From positions 339-64,338 of the forward strand of contig CALWPG010000003.1 of the NCBI GenBank assembly GCA_944383375.1: a DNA stretch of 64,000 nt, read 5' to 3'. This stretch comes from an uncultured Clostridia bacterium. Its GTDB lineage: Bacteria; Bacillota; Clostridia; Christensenellales; UBA1242. The notes under the pieces were generated by a model. That model was not told the origin of the DNA. It searched no databases and worked only from the letters and a program-made list of their open reading frames with translations. Below are positions 3,901 through 63,255 of the stretch, in pieces; positions within the stretch are counted from its first letter, which is position 1; each line of letters begins with the position of its first letter. The translations under genes were made by a program, and so were the position numbers.

Positions 3901-4098
3901 ATGGAATTTGGTCACAACTTTAGACACTATAGAATGCATTGCAATTTGACCCAAAGACAAGTGGCCAAAATTTTAGGCATAGCACAAACAAACATTTCAA
4001 ATTGGGAGAATAATCACACGCGACCAGAATATGAACATCTTGTTAGGTTAGCTCGCATCTATGATGTTTCAATTGATAAGCTTTTGGGAATTGTCTAA
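3901..4098 (+). CDS. XRE-family helix-turn-helix transcriptional regulator (65 aa)
   Basis: LTQRQVAKILGIAQTNISNWENNHTRP is the HTH_3 pattern. Confidence 0.8.
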   Translation: MEFGHNFRHYRMHCNLTQRQVAKILGIAQTNISNWENNHTRPEYEHLVRLARIYDVSIDKLLGIV

Positions 4099-4409
4099 TT
4101 ATTATTTTTTTTGTCTTCTATTTGGGCTTTAAACTTTTTCATTTTTTTATCAAGTATCCCATCTATGTCATAGTCTTTGAAAAAGTATTTCATCTGCTCA
4201 ATACACATACTCACATCGGCAATCTCTTCAACGAGATTGTCTATTATTTTTTTATCATCCTTATATTCACCATGCAAAACTTTCCTCTTATACTTATTAA
4301 TTGCAACAATAAGCTCTGCCATTTCTTCCACACATTGGTCATACTGAGCAACCACGCCCCAAAGCTTGGTTGCCTCATCATACACCTTTAATCTCTCTTC
4401 ATATGTCAT
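4095..4409 (-). CDS. MazG-like all-alpha nucleotide pyrophosphohydrolase (small)
   Basis: EEMAEL ... EEIADV acidic motif pair (EExxE / ExxD) in a 104-aa helical protein. Overlaps the XRE gene 3' end by 4 nt, convergent. Confidence 0.6.
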   Translation of the reverse strand: MTYEERLKVYDEATKLWGVVAQYDQCVEEMAELIVAINKYKRKVLHGEYKDDKKIIDNLVEEIADVSMCIEQMKYFFKDYDIDGILDKKMKKFKAQIEDKKNNN

Positions 4410-6811: not shown

Positions 6812-7309
6812 ATGAATTATCATAATATTACAAAAGACGATATGTTAAATGGAGACGGCCTTCGAGTTGTCCTTTGGGTGGCTGGTTGTTCGCACCACTG
6901 CAAAGGTTGTCATAATCCTGAAACTTGGGCTCCTGATAGCGGCATACCATTTGATGATGATGCAAAACAGGAGATTTTTGATGAACTAGAAAAAAGCTAT
7001 GTCAGTGGAATAACTTTTTCTGGTGGTGATCCACTATTTAAAGGAAATATTGACACTATAACCTCTTTGGCCAAAGAAATTAGGCAAAAATATCCACAAA
7101 AAACAATTTGGCTCTACACCGGTTACAACTTTGAAGATATAAAAGACCTTGAAATACTAAAATATGTAGATGTCTTGTGTGACGGCAAGTTTGTTCTAGA
7201 AAAACGCGATACCCAAGCTCACTGGGTGGGCTCGACCAACCAAAGGGTGATTGATGTGCAAAAATCACTAAAATCTGGCAACGTCGTATTACACAAAAAA
7301 AGCGAATAG
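6812..7309 (+). CDS. nrdG: Anaerobic ribonucleotide reductase activating protein (radical SAM)
   Basis: CSHHCKGCHN cluster; ATG abuts the nrdD stop. Confidence 0.9.
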   Translation: MNYHNITKDDMLNGDGLRVVLWVAGCSHHCKGCHNPETWAPDSGIPFDDDAKQEIFDELEKSYVSGITFSGGDPLFKGNIDTITSLAKEIRQKYPQKTIWLYTGYNFEDIKDLEILKYVDVLCDGKFVLEKRDTQAHWVGSTNQRVIDVQKSLKSGNVVLHKKSE

Positions 7310-7367
7310 GAAACATGCATCGGGTTCTTTAAAAAGTATTTCCTGAGGGTACATATTAAAAAAAAAA

Positions 7368-7394
7368 GACCTTTAAAAGTAAGGCCTTTTTTTT
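7368..7394 (+). terminator. Weak intrinsic terminator after nrdG
   Basis: GACCTTT-loop-AAGGCC followed by T8, with one mismatch in the stem. Confidence 0.45.
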
Positions 7395-7444: not shown

Positions 7445-8443
7445 ATGAATTTATTACTTATTGACTGGGATGCTATTGGACAAGAGGCACTCAATATCTT
7501 AAAAACAGTTGGCATAAACATTCTTCAAGTGCTGGGTGTTTTTATTTTAGGTTATATCCTCATAAAACTTGTAATGAAGGTATTAAAAAAGATATTTGCA
7601 AAAACAAAGATGCCTTCAGTCACTTCAAAATTTTTATTGACTTTGATTAAGTTTTCGCTATATCTGTTACTACTCATCGCAATATGTCAAATTATTGGAA
7701 TACCAATCACTGGATTTGTCGCCGTCATATCTGCAGCAGGATTAGCACTTTCTCTTGCAATGCAGGACAGTCTTTCAAACCTAGCCAATGGCGTTGTCAT
7801 CATAAGTACTCGCCCTTTTAACGAAGGCGACTACATCAAAATTGAAGATGTTGAGGGTACGGTTAGAGAAATCAAGATGCTCCACACCATAATTGACACT
7901 TCGGACAACAAGACGATAAGCATACCAAACAGCATTGTTGTTGGAAGTGAGTTGATAAACTTCAGCCACAACCCAACACGTAAAGTATCTTTCAACTTCA
8001 AGGTGGATTACTCCACTGATGTCGACAAGGCAAAAGAGATAATTTTTAGCGTCATGAAAAGTTGTAATAAAGCACTTTTGGATCCAGAACCTTTTTGTGC
8101 TCTGGATGCGCTTGGCGAAAGCAGTATAACAATTTATGCAAACTGTTGGTGTTATAAGGATGATTATTATGACGTTTACTACTTTGTTATGGAAAATGTA
8201 TTCAATGAATTCAAACGAAATGGCATAATCATGCCATACAATCAGCTTGAAGTAAGGCTTAGAAATGACAAAGTCAAACTACCTATAAATGAAACTCCTT
8301 TAAAAGAAAGAGATGAGGAAATCGCCGTCAAACCTCCTCAAAAGGAAGAGGATTTGGATTCCTTTGAAAAGTTTGTGAAAAACTACAAAGTTAAGAAAAA
8401 AGAAAAATCACGCAAAAAGAAAAACAAAAAGCAGTCTGTTTGA
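7445..8443 (+). CDS. mscS: MscS-family mechanosensitive channel
   Basis: LSNLANGVVIISTRPFNEGDYIKIEDVEGTVREIKMLHTII.. is the MscS beta-domain pattern; three N-terminal TM helices. Confidence 0.85.
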   Translation: MNLLLIDWDAIGQEALNILKTVGINILQVLGVFILGYILIKLVMKVLKKIFAKTKMPSVTSKFLLTLIKFSLYLLLLIAICQIIGIPITGFVAVISAAGLALSLAMQDSLSNLANGVVIISTRPFNEGDYIKIEDVEGTVREIKMLHTIIDTSDNKTISIPNSIVVGSELINFSHNPTRKVSFNFKVDYSTDVDKAKEIIFSVMKSCNKALLDPEPFCALDALGESSITIYANCWCYKDDYYDVYYFVMENVFNEFKRNGIIMPYNQLEVRLRNDKVKLPINETPLKERDEEIAVKPPQKEEDLDSFEKFVKNYKVKKKEKSRKKKNKKQSV

Positions 8444-11405: not shown

Positions 11406-11753
11406 ATGATTAAAAGTGAAAACAGGTTAAGAAAAAACAAGCATTTCAAGTATATCTATCACCGAGGAGAAACAAATAGTTTGGGATATATAGCCATGTC
11501 ATATATCTCGACAAAATTTGATGTAATGAAAGTAGGTTTTTCCGTGTCAAAAAAGATAGGCAAAAGTGTGGTTCGAAACAAAGTTAAAAGAAGATTAAGG
11601 GAGTGCTTTTGTGCACTTAAAAAAAATATTAATCCACACTACAACTACATTTTTGGTGCAAAGGTGGGAATTGAAAATTTGTCCTTTGAACAGATGAAAA
11701 ATAATATGATGGAATTACTCAAAAAAAATGGACTTTATGTCGAAAGTAATTAG
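11406..11753 (+). CDS. rnpA: Ribonuclease P protein component
   Basis: Follows rpmH; basic 115-aa protein with KKIGKSVVRNKVKRRLRE. Confidence 0.9.
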   Translation: MIKSENRLRKNKHFKYIYHRGETNSLGYIAMSYISTKFDVMKVGFSVSKKIGKSVVRNKVKRRLRECFCALKKNINPHYNYIFGAKVGIENLSFEQMKNNMMELLKKNGLYVESN

Positions 11754-12012
11754 TGTTATTACCTACCCTTTTAAACTTATTTTCATTTTTTTTATAAAGG
11801 TGTACAAATGGTGCATTTCACCTTTGCTTCCTCACACGTGTAGATATATCCCCTCTTGCTCAACTTATGCCATTTTGGCTATAAAAAGTTTTGGAATTTT
11901 TAAGGGCAGCGCACTTGCGATGAAACGTATTTTAAGATGCACACCAAACAATAAGGCAGGGTTTGACCTTTTGCCACAAAACATCAAGGGAGACAGCAAA
12001 TGGATAATTTAA
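11728..12012 (+). CDS. yidD: Membrane protein insertion efficiency factor YidD
   Basis: YKWCISPLLPHTCRYIPSCSTYA..ILRCTP motif. The start is uncertain (ATG 11728 or 11737). Confidence 0.85.
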   Translation: MDFMSKVISVITYPFKLIFIFFIKVYKWCISPLLPHTCRYIPSCSTYAILAIKSFGIFKGSALAMKRILRCTPNNKAGFDLLPQNIKGDSKWII

Positions 12013-13079
12013 TTTCTTCGTTGTTGGCAACTCAGCCAACGGGGATGTGGGAGACTATATTAACTTTTTTTGAAAGTGGAATTGGCAATTTTGCAATATC
12101 CATAATATTACTAACTCTGATAATCAAATTGGTAATGTCCCCACTGGACTTTTTCAATAGAAGAATGTCCAACAACATGTCAAAAATGCAAGCCAAAATC
12201 CAACCACAGATGGAAGCTATAAACAAAAAATATGCAAATGATCCCAACATGAAAAACCAAAAGCTTTCCGAACTTTACAAGCGCGAGAAAGTCAATCCTA
12301 TGGGGTCTTGCTGGTTTATGCTACTAAACTTGGGTTTGACACTTGCAATTTTCATCACCTTACTAAACGGCATGAACGCTATGGCAAGTTACAAAATTCA
12401 GTCACAATACGAACAACTGATGGTGGCTTATGTTCAAGACTATGCTGGTGACAGATTGGTTTTGGAGCAAGAAGATGCCAGCGTGTTTGAAATTTGCTTG
12501 CCATTTATTGAAGAAATGAACGCAATAAGCGATGAACAACAAAAACAACAGGTTTTTGAAGTTGCTGACCAAAATGTTGTGACTGTTTATGAACAGACTA
12601 AAGAAAGCTTTTTGTGGATAGATAATATTTGGATAGCGGACAATCCTTTCAAGAACTCTATCCCTTCGTATAGTGAGTATGCTTCAGTTGCAAGGTTAAG
12701 CGAAGAAGAAAAAAACAACGAGAATTTCCAAGTTGTGTACGATCAGATCATGGATCCTTTGAGAAATAGCTATGGAAAAACAAACGGGTATTTTATCTTG
12801 CTTGTGATCTGTGCGGGTGTGACATTTTTAAATCAGTGGCTCATAATTCGCAAAAACAAACAAAAGGGAGCACAAAAAGCAGGATATGGAACTGCAATAT
12901 TCATGACTATTTTTATGGCATTCTTTACTCTACTTTACACCACAATGTTTTCACTTTACATGATAACAGGACAAATTGTTGGACTTGTTATGACCCCAAT
13001 ATTTGATGCTATCAACAAAGCGATTGACAAACGCAAAGAAAAGAAAAATGAACCAAAGGATAGGCTCAAAAGAATTTAA
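12000..13079 (+). CDS. yidC: Membrane protein insertase YidC/SpoIIIJ family
   Basis: Position in the rnpA-yidD-yidC-jag operon; multi-TM; ..KMQAKIQPQMEAINKKYANDP..LSELYKREKVNPMGSC. Confidence 0.9.
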   Translation: MDNLISSLLATQPTGMWETILTFFESGIGNFAISIILLTLIIKLVMSPLDFFNRRMSNNMSKMQAKIQPQMEAINKKYANDPNMKNQKLSELYKREKVNPMGSCWFMLLNLGLTLAIFITLLNGMNAMASYKIQSQYEQLMVAYVQDYAGDRLVLEQEDASVFEICLPFIEEMNAISDEQQKQQVFEVADQNVVTVYEQTKESFLWIDNIWIADNPFKNSIPSYSEYASVARLSEEEKNNENFQVVYDQIMDPLRNSYGKTNGYFILLVICAGVTFLNQWLIIRKNKQKGAQKAGYGTAIFMTIFMAFFTLLYTTMFSLYMITGQIVGLVMTPIFDAINKAIDKRKEKKNEPKDRLKRI

Positions 13080-57179: not shown

Positions 57180-57346
57180 TTATCTCGTAAATTAAATATA
57201 TCTTTTCCATAGACAGCAAGTGACTTGTTCGTAAACCATTTGGTGCTTGCCGAGGCAAAGTTAGAGATTGGACATTACTCCTTTCGGGTCTTTGCCTGAA
57301 AGGATTTTTAATTTTCACATACAAATCTAAAAAAGGAGGCAAATAA
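57180..57346 (+). promoter_or_regulatory. Structured rplJL leader with attenuator-type alternative hairpins (L10-leader-like)
   Basis: Terminator-like TCCTTTC (57279-85)/GAAAGGA (57298-304) plus T5. GGCAAAG (57254-60) can instead pair with CTTTGCC (57290-96). Position upstream of rplJ. Confidence 0.5.
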
Positions 57347-57832
57347 ATGAGTGCAAATTTTGAAGCAAAAAAAGCACTTGTAGAGGAAATCAAAGACAAA
57401 CTCTCTCGTGCAAAAACAGTTGTATTTGTTGATTACCGTGGCATGACTGTTGAACAAGACACAAAAATGCGCGCACAGTTTAGAAAAAGTGGTGCAGAAT
57501 ACAAAGTTTACAAAAACAGACTCATGCTAAGAGCATTAAATGAACTTGGCTACACAGATGTTGAAAAATATCTTGAAGGCACAAGTGCTGTGGCTTTTGG
57601 CTATGAAGATGAACTTGCACCTGCAAAAATCGTCAAAGATGCTGCAAATGAAAATTGTGCAATGACAGTTAAGTTTGGTATATACAACAACAAAGTAGTT
57701 GATGACGGTGTAATCAAAAGTCTTGCAAGCATTCCATCAAGAGAAACACTTCTTGGACAACTTGTTGGTTTACTTTCATCACCAATGCGAAGCCTTGCTA
57801 TTGCAATTAAGGCTGTTGCAGATAAACAATAA
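57347..57832 (+). CDS. rplJ: 50S ribosomal protein L10
   Basis: KKALVEEIKDKLSRAKTVVFVDYRGMTVEQ. Confidence 0.96.
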   Translation: MSANFEAKKALVEEIKDKLSRAKTVVFVDYRGMTVEQDTKMRAQFRKSGAEYKVYKNRLMLRALNELGYTDVEKYLEGTSAVAFGYEDELAPAKIVKDAANENCAMTVKFGIYNNKVVDDGVIKSLASIPSRETLLGQLVGLLSSPMRSLAIAIKAVADKQ

Positions 57833-57859
57833 TAAAAAAATAAAAAGGAGAATTTAAAA

Positions 57860-58228
57860 ATGGCAGATTTAAACAAATTTGTAGAAGAAATCAAAGGTCT
57901 CAGCGTTGTTGAACTTAATGACCTTGTTAAAAAAATTGAGGAAGAATTCGGTGTAAGTGCACAGGCTATGGTTGCAGCAGCTCCAGCAGCAGGTGGCGCG
58001 GCAGCAGCTGAAGAAAAATCTGAATTCACAGTAGTACTCAAAGATGCTGGCGCAAACAAAATTGCTGTTATCAAAGCAGTTAGAGAAATCACAGGACTTG
58101 GTCTTGGCGAAGCAAAAGCTTTGGTTGATGGCGCTCCAAAGAACGTTAAAGAAAATGTTGCAGCTGAAGAAGCTAAGCAAATCGAAGCAAAACTTAAAGA
58201 AGCTGGCGCTGTTGTAGAACTTGTTTAA
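57860..58228 (+). CDS. rplL: 50S ribosomal protein L7/L12
   Basis: Ala-rich hinge and [24 protein letters not shown]. Confidence 0.97.
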
Positions 58229-58250
58229 TAGTAATATGATTTGTATGTTT

Positions 58251-58284
58251 AAAAAATAGTCCAAACTTTTGGGCTATTTTTTTT
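58251..58284 (+). terminator. Intrinsic terminator after rplL
   Basis: ATAGTCCAA-loop-TTGGGCTAT (one G-T pair) flanked by A6 and T8. Confidence 0.8.
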
Positions 58285-58325
58285 GTCTTTTTCATAAAAT
58301 TTGTTATAATCGCTTTGGAGGAAAG

Positions 58326-59507
58326 ATGCAAAGACTTAAAATAGGCCTTTTTATTGACACCTTTTTCCCCATGATTGATGGTGTGATAATGGTTGTGGAC
58401 AATTATGCAAAAAGGCTAAACAAAATCGCTGATGTGACAGTATTTTGTCCAAAACCAAACGATAAAAATTATAAAGGTGATTTTTCATATAAAGTGGTTA
58501 GATGCAAAAAACTCAAAGTATACCACTATGACTATTCACTTCCTTTGCCAAAGCTTGACAAAAAATTCAAAAAAGCACTAAAAGAGGCAAATTTGGACAT
58601 TGTCCATGTCCATTCGCCGGCAACCATTGGTATGTTTGGCATAAAGTATGCAAAAAAACACAATATCCCTTGTGTCGTCACCTTGCATAGTCAGTTCAAA
58701 AAAGATATCTTGAAAATGACACACATAAAATGGCTCACAAACCTGGTGACAAAACGCATAATGAACAGGTTCAACACATGTGACGAGGCATGGGCTGTGA
58801 ATGCTGAAATAAAAAATCTTTTTGAAAGCAGCGAATATAATTTAAAAATCCCATGCAGAGTGGTTGAAAATGCCACCGATTTACAGTTTTTGCCTAATGT
58901 GGAACAAAATAGAGAAGAAATCAAAAACAAATTTGGTATTTCACAAGATGAACATATATTTTTATTCACTGGCAGGATAAATGTCATGAAAAATATTTTG
59001 TTCATCGTGGACGCACTGAAAATTGTAAAAGATAAGGGCATAAAATTCAAAATGCTGTTTGTTGGCAGTGGTCAAGATGAAAACAAACTCAAAGCATACG
59101 TGGAGCAAAATGGTTTAACAAACAATGTCGTCATGGTTGGAAGAGTTGAAGATAGGTCACTTCTTGCCAAAATATATTCTGCAAGTGAACTTTTCTTGTT
59201 CCCATCGCTTTATGACGCAAATTCGCTTGTTCAAATTGAAGCAGCCAGCCAAAAGACACCTGCCATATTTTTGGAAGGGGCAAGAACTGCTGGAAATGTG
59301 ACAAACAATGTCAATGGAATTATAAGCAAAAATGATGCATCATCATACGCAGAGGAAATTGTTTCCATTCTTTCAGACAAACAAAGATATGAAATGCTTT
59401 GTGAAAATGCGTATAGAGATCTTTACATAAACTGGGATATGGTCACCAAAGAAGTTTATGAAATGTATCAAAAATTAATAGAAAAAAACAATTTACCAAA
59501 ACAATAA
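58326..59507 (+). CDS. GT4-family glycosyltransferase (diacylglycerol glucosyltransferase-like)
   Basis: N-terminal IGLFIDTFFPMIDGV; C-terminal E-x7-E region ELFLFPSLYDANSLVQIEAAS. Start moved to ATG 58326 (RBS GGAGGAAAG). Confidence 0.8.
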   Translation: MQRLKIGLFIDTFFPMIDGVIMVVDNYAKRLNKIADVTVFCPKPNDKNYKGDFSYKVVRCKKLKVYHYDYSLPLPKLDKKFKKALKEANLDIVHVHSPATIGMFGIKYAKKHNIPCVVTLHSQFKKDILKMTHIKWLTNLVTKRIMNRFNTCDEAWAVNAEIKNLFESSEYNLKIPCRVVENATDLQFLPNVEQNREEIKNKFGISQDEHIFLFTGRINVMKNILFIVDALKIVKDKGIKFKMLFVGSGQDENKLKAYVEQNGLTNNVVMVGRVEDRSLLAKIYSASELFLFPSLYDANSLVQIEAASQKTPAIFLEGARTAGNVTNNVNGIISKNDASSYAEEIVSILSDKQRYEMLCENAYRDLYINWDMVTKEVYEMYQKLIEKNNLPKQ

Positions 59508-59538
59508 AATTGTGTATAATATCCATGTAGGAGAGAAA

Positions 59539-60636
59539 TTGTACCAAGCATTATACAGAAAGTATCGCCCACAGTCCTTTGATGATATTGTGGGGCAAAA
59601 ACATATAACAACAACACTTGTCCACCAAATTCAAAGTGGCAATATTTCTCATGCCTATCTTTTCACCGGAAGTCGTGGAACGGGCAAAACAAGCACTGCA
59701 AAAATTTTTGCCAAAGCCATCAACTGCCAGAATCCACAAAATGGTTCGCCATGTGGAGAATGTGAAGTTTGCAGGGCTCTAAGCGACCCTAACAACATGG
59801 ATATTGTGGAAATTGATGCAGCTTCAAACAACAGAGTTGATGAAGTTCGTGACATACGTGAAAAAGTCAAATTCATGCCTGTATCTGCAAAATATAAGGT
59901 GTATATAATTGACGAAGTTCATATGCTCACCGAAAGTGCATTCAATGCACTGCTAAAAACTTTGGAAGAGCCACCAAAACACATAGTTTTTATTTTAGCA
60001 ACCACAGAAGTTCAAAAACTTCCTGCAACCATCATCTCAAGGTGCATGAGATTTGATTTTCACCTGCTTGATGACAGTGTGCTAAAAACGCATCTAAAAC
60101 GCATTTTTGAACAGGAAAAAATTTCCTGTGATGAAGATTCATATTCACTCATCGTAAAATCTGCACAGGGCAGTGTTCGTGATATGCTCTCAATCGCTGA
60201 AGGTATAGTTTCCTACACCGGTGGAAACATAACCAAAGATCAAGTTATGGATGTTTTGGGAACAACAGACCATGACACCAACCTTGAAATTGTTGGTAGC
60301 TTATATCAAAAAGATGTGGGTCGTGCTATATCACTTTTGGATGGTGCCAAAAAAAGTGGCAAAAATATGAACATAGTTGCAAAAGATATTTCCCAGTGCG
60401 TGCGTGACCTCATCGTTGCAAAAACCTGCCAAGACGCAAAGGACATCTTGGGTTTCACAAATGACGTGTTTGATAAATACATCTCACTTGCAAAAGATAT
60501 TGACATAAATGCTTTGATGAAGTACATGAAAATTTTCTCATCTGTGATCACAGAACTAAAATTTGCACTTTCGCCAACAGTTTTGATTGAAACTGCAATG
60601 ATAGACTGTATACTTGATGATGAAAAAAAAAACTGA
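59539..60636 (+). CDS. dnaX: DNA polymerase III gamma/tau subunit, domains I-III only in the zero frame
   Basis: YRKYRPQSFDDIVGQ, GSRGTGKTS, Zn module CQNPQNGSPCGECEVC, IIDEVHML, ISRCMRFDF. Start proposed at TTG 59539 (RBS GGAGAG). Stop TGA at 60634-60636, directly after the A10 run. Confidence 0.9.
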   Translation: MYQALYRKYRPQSFDDIVGQKHITTTLVHQIQSGNISHAYLFTGSRGTGKTSTAKIFAKAINCQNPQNGSPCGECEVCRALSDPNNMDIVEIDAASNNRVDEVRDIREKVKFMPVSAKYKVYIIDEVHMLTESAFNALLKTLEEPPKHIVFILATTEVQKLPATIISRCMRFDFHLLDDSVLKTHLKRIFEQEKISCDEDSYSLIVKSAQGSVRDMLSIAEGIVSYTGGNITKDQVMDVLGTTDHDTNLEIVGSLYQKDVGRAISLLDGAKKSGKNMNIVAKDISQCVRDLIVAKTCQDAKDILGFTNDVFDKYISLAKDIDINALMKYMKIFSSVITELKFALSPTVLIETAMIDCILDDEKKN

Positions 60637-60980
60637 ATTTAACTAAAGTCAATGCCAAACAAAATGTGAAACTATCTGCACTTTCCATTTGGGGTAAAGT
60701 TGTTTTGTATCTTCGTGAACATAATGATAGGATTTTGCACGTTATGTGTGGTGACATACGTGATGTGGAATTTTCTGGAGATACCTTTGTGATATCATCT
60801 GAAGAAGACTCTGTCATAAATATGCTTAACGAAAAGTCAAATCAGGCAGAACTAAATAGGGCACTTGAAATGTTTGGAGTATTTGACTTTGTGGTACAAA
60901 AAAAGAAAAAATTGGCATCTGATGATGAAAATATTCAAATTTTAAATAAATTTTTTGACAATATTGTTGAAATAGAATAG
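60624..60980 (+). CDS. dnaX: DnaX/tau C-terminal domain in the -1 frame relative to dnaX (fusion by slippage, separate ORF, or sequencing frameshift)
   Basis: The frame opens at 60624 inside the A10 run (preceding in-frame TGA at 60621-23). ..LSIWGKVVLYLREHNDRILHVMCGDIRDVEFSGDTFVISSEE..LNRALEMFGVFDFVV resembles the Firmicute DnaX C-terminus. Confidence 0.65.
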   Translation, partial: KKKLNLTKVNAKQNVKLSALSIWGKVVLYLREHNDRILHVMCGDIRDVEFSGDTFVISSEEDSVINMLNEKSNQAELNRALEMFGVFDFVVQKKKKLASDDENIQILNKFFDNIVEIE

Positions 60981-60989
60981 GAGGATTAT

Positions 60990-61322
60990 ATGAATAATTT
61001 TAGAGGTGGTTTTGGTGGTGGATTCAACGGTGCAAATTTGCAAAATCTCATGCGTCAAGCACAAAAGATGCAGGAGGAGATGGAAAAGGCAAAGGTAGAA
61101 CTTGAAAGCACAGAATTCACAGGCACAAGTGGTGGGAATATGGTTGAAGTGGTACTAACCGGCGACAAAAAAGCAAAAAAGGTCACAATCAAGCCTGAAG
61201 TCGTGGATGTTGACGATATTGAAATGCTTGAAGATTTGATTGTCAGTGCAATCAACGATGCAGTTGAGAAAATTACTGTTGCAGAAAGTGAAAAATTGCC
61301 AAAACTTCCACAAGGAATGTAA
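60990..61322 (+). CDS. ybaB: Nucleoid-associated protein YbaB/EbfC
   Basis: LMRQAQKMQEEMEKAKVELE..GGNMVEVVLTGD; conserved dnaX-ybaB-recR order. Confidence 0.92.
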   Translation: MNNFRGGFGGGFNGANLQNLMRQAQKMQEEMEKAKVELESTEFTGTSGGNMVEVVLTGDKKAKKVTIKPEVVDVDDIEMLEDLIVSAINDAVEKITVAESEKLPKLPQGM

Positions 61323-61324
61323 TC

Positions 61325-61912
61325 ATGTATATAGAAAGTTTAGAAAATTTAATAAACAGTTTTCGTTCATTGCCTGGTGTTGGTTACAAAACTGCACAGA
61401 GATATGCGTATAGCATTTTAAACCGTGACATTCAAGATGCAAAACAGTTTGCACAAAACATTGTCAGTGCAAAAGAAAATATAAAATTTTGCAATGAGTG
61501 TGGGAATTTCTCTGAAAGCGAAATCTGCGAGACCTGCCGAAAGAAAAATAAAGACATCATTTGTGTGGTCAAAGAGCCAAAAGATGTTGCAACAATGGAA
61601 AAGGTAAAAAATTATGATGGTGTTTTTCATGTTCTTGGTGGAACAATAAGCCCACTTGAAAATCGTGGACCAGATGACATAAGAATAAAAGAACTTCTTT
61701 CGCGTGTACAAAAGTACAACACAAAAGAAGTCATTATGGCGCTTAATCCCGATGTTGAAGGTGACGCAACAGCAATGTATATCTCAAAGCTTTTGTCACC
61801 ACTTGGCGTTAAAGTCACGCGTCTTGCCCAAGGTATTAGCATGGGTAGCGAACTGGAATTTACCGACGAGGTAACTCTTTCAAAAGCAATGGAGTCAAGG
61901 ACAAAAATCTAA
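61325..61912 (+). CDS. recR: Recombination protein RecR
   Basis: LPGVGYKTAQRYAY, Zn finger CNECGN..CETC and a Toprim domain. Confidence 0.95.
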   Translation: MYIESLENLINSFRSLPGVGYKTAQRYAYSILNRDIQDAKQFAQNIVSAKENIKFCNECGNFSESEICETCRKKNKDIICVVKEPKDVATMEKVKNYDGVFHVLGGTISPLENRGPDDIRIKELLSRVQKYNTKEVIMALNPDVEGDATAMYISKLLSPLGVKVTRLAQGISMGSELEFTDEVTLSKAMESRTKI

Positions 61913-63255
61913 AGTTCCTTGCCTTCTTTTTTTATATCTTGCGCTTTGCGTTTTTGAGACCTTTCTCTAAGTTCTTTTCTTATTTGCATAACCCTGTCAA
62001 ATTCAAGCCTTGCCTTTGCAAACATTGCATTTTTTGCACCAACAATAAAGTTATCCATTGATTCACCTTTGGATTTTTCAAAAACTTCGTCGCAGTAGTT
62101 TTCTGCTTCTTCTTTTTTCAAGCCATCCAAAATTAAAACGTTTATAAATGCATCTTTTAAAGTCTCGTAGGGGATGACAGTGGACTTAAGTTTTATTTTT
62201 TTGCAAACGTGCTTTAAAAATCTGTTTTCAAAAATGACACTGTCAAATGGTAAATTTTGTACATACTTTGCATCTTCGGGAGTGTTTTGTGAAATGTAGT
62301 CGGCATATTGCTTTCTTTCTTCATCAATGTCCACAACTTTTTGCTGTTTTAGAACATTCAAAGTATTCAAATTTTCAACCGACATTATATACATAGAGTT
62401 GTCATTCTCATAAAAATATTTAAAGTTATTGTTTTTGTTCGCAGTAATGGTGTAATTTTTGTAGAAATTTATGTCACTTACAGGAAGCAAACAATAACTC
62501 AAAGTCATTGGGCTTTCAAGGTCGGCTCTACTGTCCCATGTGACATCTGCGTGGTACATGCCGTTTATCTTATACTTGTCATCTTTTAAAATAACCATGT
62601 TCATGGCATGCATTTCCACATCTTTTTGTTTTTTGTCATGCATAGAAACACTTTGAAAAAAGCATTTCAAGTTGTCGTTGTTTAAATTGTCCACAATTTC
62701 ACGGAGAGTTTCGGCAAAATTTTGACATACTATGTGTCCATTGTTTGACAAACTGAAAAGTGAATGGGTCATGGTTGGACTTTTCAAACTTTCGTCGTCA
62801 TTATACACATTTTGTGCCAATTTTTTGTAGGCATACAAAAATTGTTCAAGAGGTGACATGTTTTTGCTCTTTATTTCTTCCACAATGCCATGGATATAAT
62901 TGTATGTTTTTTCAACCTCAGAGATATCCCATAGTACATCATTTTCTTTAATGTAGAGCTTTGCATTTTGTGTTCTTAAAATCCTATCAAACTGTTTTAT
63001 CACTTCAAAATCTTTAAGCGGAAAAAGTTTGTCATGCATCACAATATTAAAGTTAAATGATGATGGCTGTTGTTTGCAATCATAAATATCCCTCAAAATC
63101 GCAAAGAGTGGATTTATACTATCATAGGACATTAAATCAATTGAAATGGAAATATTTTTGCCGTTGGCATTTTTGTACATACTCGAAAAATTATCAAGTT
63201 TCCAAGATGGAATTTTGATAACATAACGATTGTTTAATTCATTAAAATGTTTCAT
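61909..63255 (-). CDS. Transglutaminase-like (Cys-His-Asp core) domain protein, otherwise uncharacterised
   Basis: GHIVCQNFAETLREIV (Cys), VEMHAMNMVIL (His) and NGMYHADVTWD (Asp) in the order and spacing of the TGase-core fold. Confidence 0.6.
   Translation of the reverse strand: MKHFNELNNRYVIKIPSWKLDNFSSMYKNANGKNISISIDLMSYDSINPLFAILRDIYDCKQQPSSFNFNIVMHDKLFPLKDFEVIKQFDRILRTQNAKLYIKENDVLWDISEVEKTYNYIHGIVEEIKSKNMSPLEQFLYAYKKLAQNVYNDDESLKSPTMTHSLFSLSNNGHIVCQNFAETLREIVDNLNNDNLKCFFQSVSMHDKKQKDVEMHAMNMVILKDDKYKINGMYHADVTWDSRADLESPMTLSYCLLPVSDINFYKNYTITANKNNNFKYFYENDNSMYIMSVENLNTLNVLKQQKVVDIDEERKQYADYISQNTPEDAKYVQNLPFDSVIFENRFLKHVCKKIKLKSTVIPYETLKDAFINVLILDGLKKEEAENYCDEVFEKSKGESMDNFIVGAKNAMFAKARLEFDRVMQIRKELRERSQKRKAQDIKKEGKEL

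Follow-up and report, generated by a model that had tools for sequence, protein, structure and literature searches.

A conserved adenine run separates the gamma-like frame of dnaX from a putative tau C-terminal frame in a lineage of gut Clostridia

The described dnaX genes that yield both the short gamma and the long tau subunit do so in different ways. In Escherichia coli, the ribosome shifts by -1 on the sequence A_AAA_AAG (PMC5009743). A Shine–Dalgarno (SD)-like element precedes this site and a stem-loop follows it, and the shift yields the shorter gamma. In Thermus thermophilus, transcriptional slippage occurs on a sense-strand run of nine adenines (A9) at the end of the gamma part, with nearby stops in the alternative frames, and one gene gives both tau, read in the zero frame, and gamma, which needs the slip (Larsen et al. 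2000, as described in PMC1088944). The dnaX genes of Bacillus subtilis, Staphylococcus aureus, and Streptococcus pyogenes give only tau (Robinson et al. 2012; PMC3290774). A further arrangement, in which tau is the product that needs recoding, mostly at a run of ten adenines (A10), was reported by Antonov, Coakley, Atkins, Baranov, and Borodovsky in 2013 (NAR 41:6514; PMC3711429). Here we describe a dnaX gene of this last kind on a 64-kb stretch of contig CALWPG010000003.1 from an uncultured Clostridia bacterium; the whole stretch analyzed is called the window. The gene is divided at an A10 run, and the junction is very probably a conserved programmed recoding cassette, be it at the level of transcription or of translation.

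According to the available passages of Antonov et al., their set comprises 17 genes from 12 genera, nine of them with A10, and falls into the phyla Chlorobi, Bacteroidetes, and Verrucomicrobia. Their Figure S3 names Chlorobium, Prosthecochloris, Flavobacterium, Cytophaga, Capnocytophaga, and Coraliomargarita, and transcriptional realignment was proposed by analogy with Thermus. These passages name no Clostridia or other Firmicutes, and the string “Clostridi” is missing from the main text. In the literature searched, we found no later report of a dnaX gene in Firmicutes that needs recoding for tau. As far as the available passages go, the window is a Firmicutes example of this published architecture and places it in a new phylum-level lineage. 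A preliminary description of the window, made from its sequence, had called the logic of a full-length form that needs the slip inverted; this arrangement is not new and is already contained in Antonov et al.

All coordinates below refer to the window and, unless stated otherwise, to its forward strand. The zero-frame open reading frame (ORF) of dnaX, ORF1, extends from the start codon TTG 59539 to position 60636 and encodes a gamma-like product of 365 amino acids with clamp-loader domains I–III. Homologues begin with MYQALYRKYRP. ORF1 matches the Pfam families DNA_pol3_delta2, DNAX_ATPase_lid, and DNA_pol3_gamma3 and scores 437 bits against the NCBIfam model dnaX_nterm. Its 3' end reads GAT GAT GAA AAA AAA AAC TGA (protein end ..DDEKKN) and contains the A10 slip site at 60623–60632, for which relatives define the conserved core NNA AAA AAA AAC. 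The zero-frame stop TGA (60634–60636), the putative terminator of gamma, lies 1 nt past the run. The -1 frame is closed just 5' of the run by a TGA (60621–60623) and can therefore be entered only at or after the run. It is then open from 60624 to 60980 (ORF2; 118 codons, with the stop TAG at 60978–60980) and probably encodes a linker and a tau C-terminal, domain V-like domain. The third frame ends at a TAA (60644–60646; ..KKTEFN*), which would terminate translation of mRNAs that have lost one A or gained two. Insertion of one A in the run gives a single protein of 480 amino acids. The positions that the preliminary description had assigned to the run, the zero-frame stop, and the open -1 frame were correct to the base.

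As in the genes of Antonov et al., as described in the available passages, the window contains two adjacent ORFs, offset by -1, that meet in a poly-A run where domain III ends, a zero-frame stop right past the run, and a longer tau that would need the shift. The junctional run (7–10 A), the zero-frame product equal to gamma, the apparently tau-specific downstream ORF, and the conservation over several genera also agree. The base after the published runs is G, whereas the runs found here continue with C-T[GA]-A. The hosts found here belong to the low-GC gut Clostridia-type Firmicutes and are represented by metagenome-assembled genomes named “Clostridia bacterium” or “Oscillospiraceae bacterium”, and tau would be short (∼480 amino acids), with almost no domain IV.

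As in Thermus dnaX, the gamma/tau boundary of the window is marked by at least nine consecutive A, and the alternative frames have nearby stops (TGA 60634–60636 and TAA 60644–60646). The roles of the frames are reversed, however, as tau is the zero-frame product in Thermus and the shifted one in the window. The E. coli gene resembles the window in the position at the end of domain III, the A-rich slippery site, and the stop directly past the shift. It differs in the site itself, which is A AAA AAA AAC in the window (AAG is found in no relative), in the stem-loop and SD-like stimulator, which the window lacks, and in the shifted product, which is longer rather than shorter in the window. Shigella mxiE and the rescue of poly(A) indels in endosymbionts are comparable in that a base inserted into a homopolymer during transcription joins two ORFs into a longer product (PMC1088944, PMC5009743). 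These cases concern other genes, and those in endosymbionts are sporadic rescues of mutations and not a cassette conserved over a wide clade.

The split is shared by a large group of relatives. We searched for homologues with the fused DnaX protein and assessed the best 120. About 110 of these, at 56–100% identity, are 364–375 amino acids long and end with ..KKN-stop at the same position. The sequences stem from ENA, Logan, NCBI, and JGI assemblies, many of them independent, and the protein of the window itself is present on at least 15 contigs. At the DNA level, nine relatives (L001 and L081–L088) show NNA AAA AAA AAC followed by TGA or TAA, and a -1-frame ORF of 114–129 codons ahead of ybaB. 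A sample independent of the run was obtained by scanning metagenome contigs with a five-sequence alignment of the downstream C-domain only, which yielded 29 loci, 28 of them with upstream sequence. All 28 informative loci possess A9 followed by C, a zero-frame stop 1–7 nt further on, and the C-domain in the -1 frame. Counted over distinct relatives, the two-ORF arrangement with a -1 offset is present in 33 of 34. The comparison with relatives that had been proposed in the preliminary description thus finds both the A-run and the frame offset kept.

The cassette spans several genera and persists in differing upstream surroundings (rplJL-GT4, DegV-HU, PGK-TIM, sigma factor, and gidAB). A scan of genome contigs with universal DnaX motifs returned, among the matches listed, mostly distant unsplit dnaX genes, and L001 was the only member of the clade. 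In distant relatives (L003, L122, L002, and others; ∼45–53% identity), dnaX is unbroken and has no A-run. Unbroken relatives without the run had been named beforehand as evidence that would speak against the split; this criterion was too strict, as they do exist among the more distant relatives and leave the conserved cassette of the clade standing. To judge from these sequences, the split of dnaX is real and old and not a sequencing error.

Within the cassette, conservation is concentrated on the run. In 32 distinct split sequences, the A9C core (positions -9 to +1) is 100% identical, whereas the flanking columns reach 35–85%. The codon in front of the two lysine codons is GTA, GCA, GAA, CAA, TCA, or ATA, that is, six different amino acids with a third base that is always A; the A10 of the window corresponds to A9 plus the second A of GAA. 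Elsewhere in these dnaX genes, 29% of the lysine codons are AAG. In 30 of the 32 sequences, leucine is encoded past the run by CTG or CTA, with A as the next base. This bias preserves the zero-frame stop, indicating that selection acts on the termination of the short product as well. Of 35 relatives, 31 have the zero-frame stop one codon past the run, and the others have it within four codons. The third frame closes within four codons in 25 of 35, as compared with 37% of background off-frame positions. Run lengths among the relatives are A9 or A10, with single lineages that have A11 and A6.

Runs of this length are also exceptional in the window, where the A10 of dnaX is the sole A/T run of at least nine bases inside a coding region. 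The other three such runs are intergenic, and two of them resemble terminators. Counts of A/T runs drop approximately 0.4–0.5-fold per added base up to length 7; beyond this, 23 runs have length 8 and 2 have length 9. The A-run of dnaX is beyond chance expectation. The remaining genes of the window are intact, and none is broken at an A8 run.

The -1 ORF is intact in every locus (110–129 codons), whereas the median distance to a stop from background off-frame positions is 7 codons. Its products are 27–64% identical to each other and share invariant W, G, E, and L residues and a C-G-D motif, and amino acid conservation (KKKL, LK[IL]) starts at the run itself. This pattern indicates that the -1 ORF is under protein-level constraint. 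The assignment of this ORF to the C-terminal domain of Firmicute tau, made in the preliminary description, agrees with a profile alignment (hhalign) to the tau C terminus of Bacilli, which covers 99 columns end to end with E = 0.0019 and a probability of 14%. The fused protein reaches the ends of full-length DnaX models of NCBIfam (2–472 to 3–470 of 488), and natural in-frame homologues of 478–485 amino acids align with it throughout, with the junction ..VKKKL.... Searched on its own, the -1 ORF has no Pfam family and gives only faint NCBIfam matches to DnaX C termini (E = 0.016–0.035), and the C-domain profile found only chance matches, to armadillo-repeat proteins, among PDB sequences.

The AlphaFold (AF2) model of the -1 ORF is a mixed helix/strand structure with a mean pLDDT of 77.7 and ∼90 in the core. 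A Foldseek search of this model against the PDB returned nothing at E ≤0.001; the weak top matches (E ≥0.01) include DnaA domain I, DciA, and the C-domain of E. coli tau (5fku_E, 2aya), three domains that we take to share a KH-like fold. A word-indexed search with the C-domain found 9 proteins, and in a representative library ∼73 of 79 matches are stand-alone ORFs of 72–235 amino acids, a measure of how far the split extends and how rarely it is annotated. Taken together, these features suggest that the -1 ORF encodes a functional tau C terminus.

Several relatives vary the length of the run. L089 (63-kb contig; 4092–4101), L123 (2601–2610), and L124 (2154–2163) carry an in-frame A10 (GTA AAA AAA AAA CTG A..), the latter two representing a 48-kb contig from two JGI samples. 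They possess the same cassette with one more A, which brings the C-domain into frame, and retain both hidden stops; only in these rare A(n+1) relatives is the arrangement like that of Thermus. Split and fused contigs occur side by side in the 90%-identity clusters of P0033 (26:3) and P0037 (33:4), and the small clusters of P0047 and P0053 are all fused. In L120/L121 (2590–2610), A11 is followed by TAA (CAA AAA AAA AAA TAA), and the C-domain is again in the -1 frame; this sequence is identical between the Logan and NCBI assemblies. The species of the window itself is represented by an additional A9 allele (P0002) on one short Logan contig. In P0009 (74% identity; a single 22-kb contig), the zero frame continues for 55 out-of-frame codons past ..EKKN to a total of 420 amino acids, and the adjacent zero-frame stop is, by its sequence, lost.

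Homopolymers are error-prone, and the A9 contig of the window's own species, as well as the in-frame length on ∼10% of the contigs in the two species-level clusters, could be taken as signs of a sequencing or assembly error that hides a true A11 and one uninterrupted ORF. This alternative, raised in the preliminary description, is effectively refuted already, and we give it almost no weight. Dozens of independent Illumina-type assemblies share the out-of-frame length, as do relatives of 56–100% identity, the biased leucine codon that keeps the zero-frame stop is sensible only if the zero frame is read, and the A8 runs of the window have left its other genes unbroken. The coexistence of both lengths inside the two 90%-identity clusters, with in-frame alleles on 48–63-kb contigs from separate samples, would also fit phase variation at the DNA level, in which the run would switch between A(n) and A(n+1) by slipped-strand mispairing and only in-frame cells would make tau. 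As tau is essential, however, a population that is ∼90% “off” would not be viable without recoding, and almost all assemblies and lineages have the out-of-frame state as their consensus, which makes phase variation a very improbable explanation.

The lack of initiation signals weighs against a genuine split of the gene, in which the C-domain would be translated separately as its own subunit or persist as a decaying remnant. In most assemblies, gene callers do list the -1 ORF as a small protein of its own, and the window offers GTG 60666 as a possible start. However, the stretch from the run to the conserved WGK motif contains neither ATG nor GTG nor TTG in 16 of 34 relatives, the positions of possible starts are not conserved among the 34, and an SD-like sequence precedes the -1 ORF in just one of them. 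The downstream ybaB has a clear SD sequence in most of the 12 relatives inspected, and these organisms therefore do use SD sequences. Conservation that begins at the run, and not at a start codon, also disagrees with separate translation, a decaying remnant would not be expected to stay intact and conserved, and a detached tau C-domain could not tether the polymerase to the clamp loader (PMC3290774). Separate translation, the second alternative of the preliminary description, is accordingly doubtful in the extreme. Its proposal of an unshifted gamma and of a tau that arises by a -1 shift or an added A is supported by the conserved cassette and by a conserved -1 ORF that is devoid of initiation signals of its own.

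In a programmed recoding cassette of this kind, standard transcription and translation would produce the 365-amino acid gamma-like subunit with domains I–III, ending one codon past the run. In a fraction of expression events, one base would be gained in the run, joining ORF1 to the -1 ORF, and the fused product would be the ∼480-amino acid tau, whose C-terminal domain would tether the replicative polymerase. RNA polymerase may slip on the run of at least nine A and add one non-templated A, and ordinary translation of this mRNA would then yield tau; ribosomes that shift by -1 on A_AAA_AAA or A_AAA_AAC may also play a part. Given programmed recoding, we lean toward the view that the added base comes mainly from RNA polymerase.

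Several features favor the transcriptional level. The conserved run has at least nine nucleotides, although seven would serve a ribosomal heptamer. Nine is the run length in Thermus dnaX and, in many genomes, the length from which runs are selected against (PMC1088944), and runs of at least nine are otherwise missing from the coding sequence of the window. Both alternative frames close quickly, and the cassette tolerates the A(n) as well as the A(n+1) state. Stimulatory elements that would point to the ribosome are also lacking. Among 34 loci, we found no positionally conserved frameshift-stimulating hairpin downstream of the run, nor a nascent-RNA hairpin upstream of it, and the mean z of downstream folding is -0.6. 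In the window, the 60 nt 3' of the run fold with -3.7 kcal/mol (z = +0.6), and no SD-like sequence was found upstream of the run, in agreement with the preliminary description, which had seen neither element.

If the recoding were instead mostly the work of ribosomes that shift by -1 on A_AAA_AAA or A_AAA_AAC, with the adjacent stop slowing them and no significant part for RNA polymerase, this would account for the two overlapping heptamers in zero-frame register in every relative and for the stop directly past the site in 31 of 35. E. coli dnaX sets a precedent for a -1 shift on a related heptamer, some relatives have a purine-rich GGnGA ∼9 nt upstream, and the A6 variant L119 keeps exactly A_AAA_AAC and the stop. 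Without the stimulators discussed above, however, an essential protein would hang on an unstimulated site, and in E. coli both A_AAA_AAA and A_AAA_AAC are far less shift-prone than A_AAA_AAG (PMC5009743). Moreover, the conservation of nine A, including the wobble A of a variable codon, exceeds the need of one heptamer. We consider a mainly ribosomal shift a possible but rather unlikely alternative.

Some observations weigh against slippage of RNA polymerase, or against programmed recoding as a whole. L119 (1150–1175; a single 1.8-kb contig) has only A6 (CAA GGA AAA AAC TAA) with an intact -1 C-domain ORF. It retains the ribosomal heptamer A_AAA_AAC, yet would be a poor site for transcriptional slippage, which hints that this heptamer may be enough or that the copy is in decay. 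Rapid closure of the third frame would likewise be expected if ribosomes shifted by -1 on the in-frame alleles. The relatives are phylogenetically related, so the counts given above are not independent, and the link between the C-domain and domain V of tau is carried by modest scores. Finally, the production of both proteins, and hence that of tau, as well as the level of the slip, are what we infer from sequence.

Recognizing the cassette affects how these genomes are read. In a large, mostly uncultured gut clade, public annotation presents a truncated “DNA polymerase III subunit gamma/tau” and an unnamed, Pfam-less protein of ∼100 amino acids; recognition of the cassette restores the essential tau to the annotation. 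The conserved zero-frame stop implies selection for the gamma-like product and adds an independent lineage to the debate on the purpose of gamma. The coexisting A(n) and A(n+1) alleles illustrate the idea, put forward by Atkins et al. (2016) in a review that also treats the genes of Antonov et al., that the change of one nucleotide can reverse which product needs the shift (PMC5009743). With both alleles present in natural populations of gut Clostridia, one may speculate that slippage always gives tau and gamma, that a heritable one-base change swaps the default product and tunes the tau:gamma ratio like a rheostat, and that gamma is obligatory and selected in a Firmicute lineage. We put this forward as a tentative and rather improbable extension of programmed recoding; if true, the composition of the replisome would be adjustable, which runs against the tau-only view of Firmicutes.

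The remainder of the locus is organized as follows. Upstream of dnaX lie a promoter-like site (TTTACC-17-TATAAT; 59492–59520), assigned by consensus match only, and the SD sequence AGGAGAG (59529–59535), 3 nt 5' of TTG 59539. Downstream follow ybaB/ebfC (60990–61322), with its own GGAGG, and recR (61325–61912), an ORF of the window named after the Pfam annotation of relatives. The order dnaX-ybaB-recR, which forms the operon in the window, is common to all relatives inspected. On the reverse strand, a 448-amino acid ORF without a Pfam match (61909–63255) converges on recR, and L081 has a 455-amino acid ORF at the same place that is also Pfam-less. The region 57189–59507 contains an L10 leader, rplJ, and rplL, followed by a GT4 glycosyltransferase and dnaX instead of rpoB/rpoC, in the same order as in L081.

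Reassignment of TGA as a sense codon was considered and rejected, as long ORFs are intact under translation table 11 and many relatives use TAA as the zero-frame stop; in the window, a further zero-frame TAA follows two codons past the TGA. The A8 run at 11721–11728 was likewise rejected as a second A-run frameshift. It lies in an ordinary overlap of rnpA and yidD, within a region (11406–13079) in which rnpA, yidD, and yidC overlap at the A8 run (Pfam Ribonuclease_P, YidD, and 60KD_IMP). The only other A10 of the window is intergenic (7358–7394, between the ORFs 6812–7309 and 7445–8443) and is followed by a GGCCTT..AAGGCC hairpin and T8, so that this element looks like a bidirectional intrinsic terminator. 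Apart from these runs, the window contains a SAM riboswitch (1555–1640; Rfam RF00162, 51.7 bits) upstream of the ORF 1699–2790.

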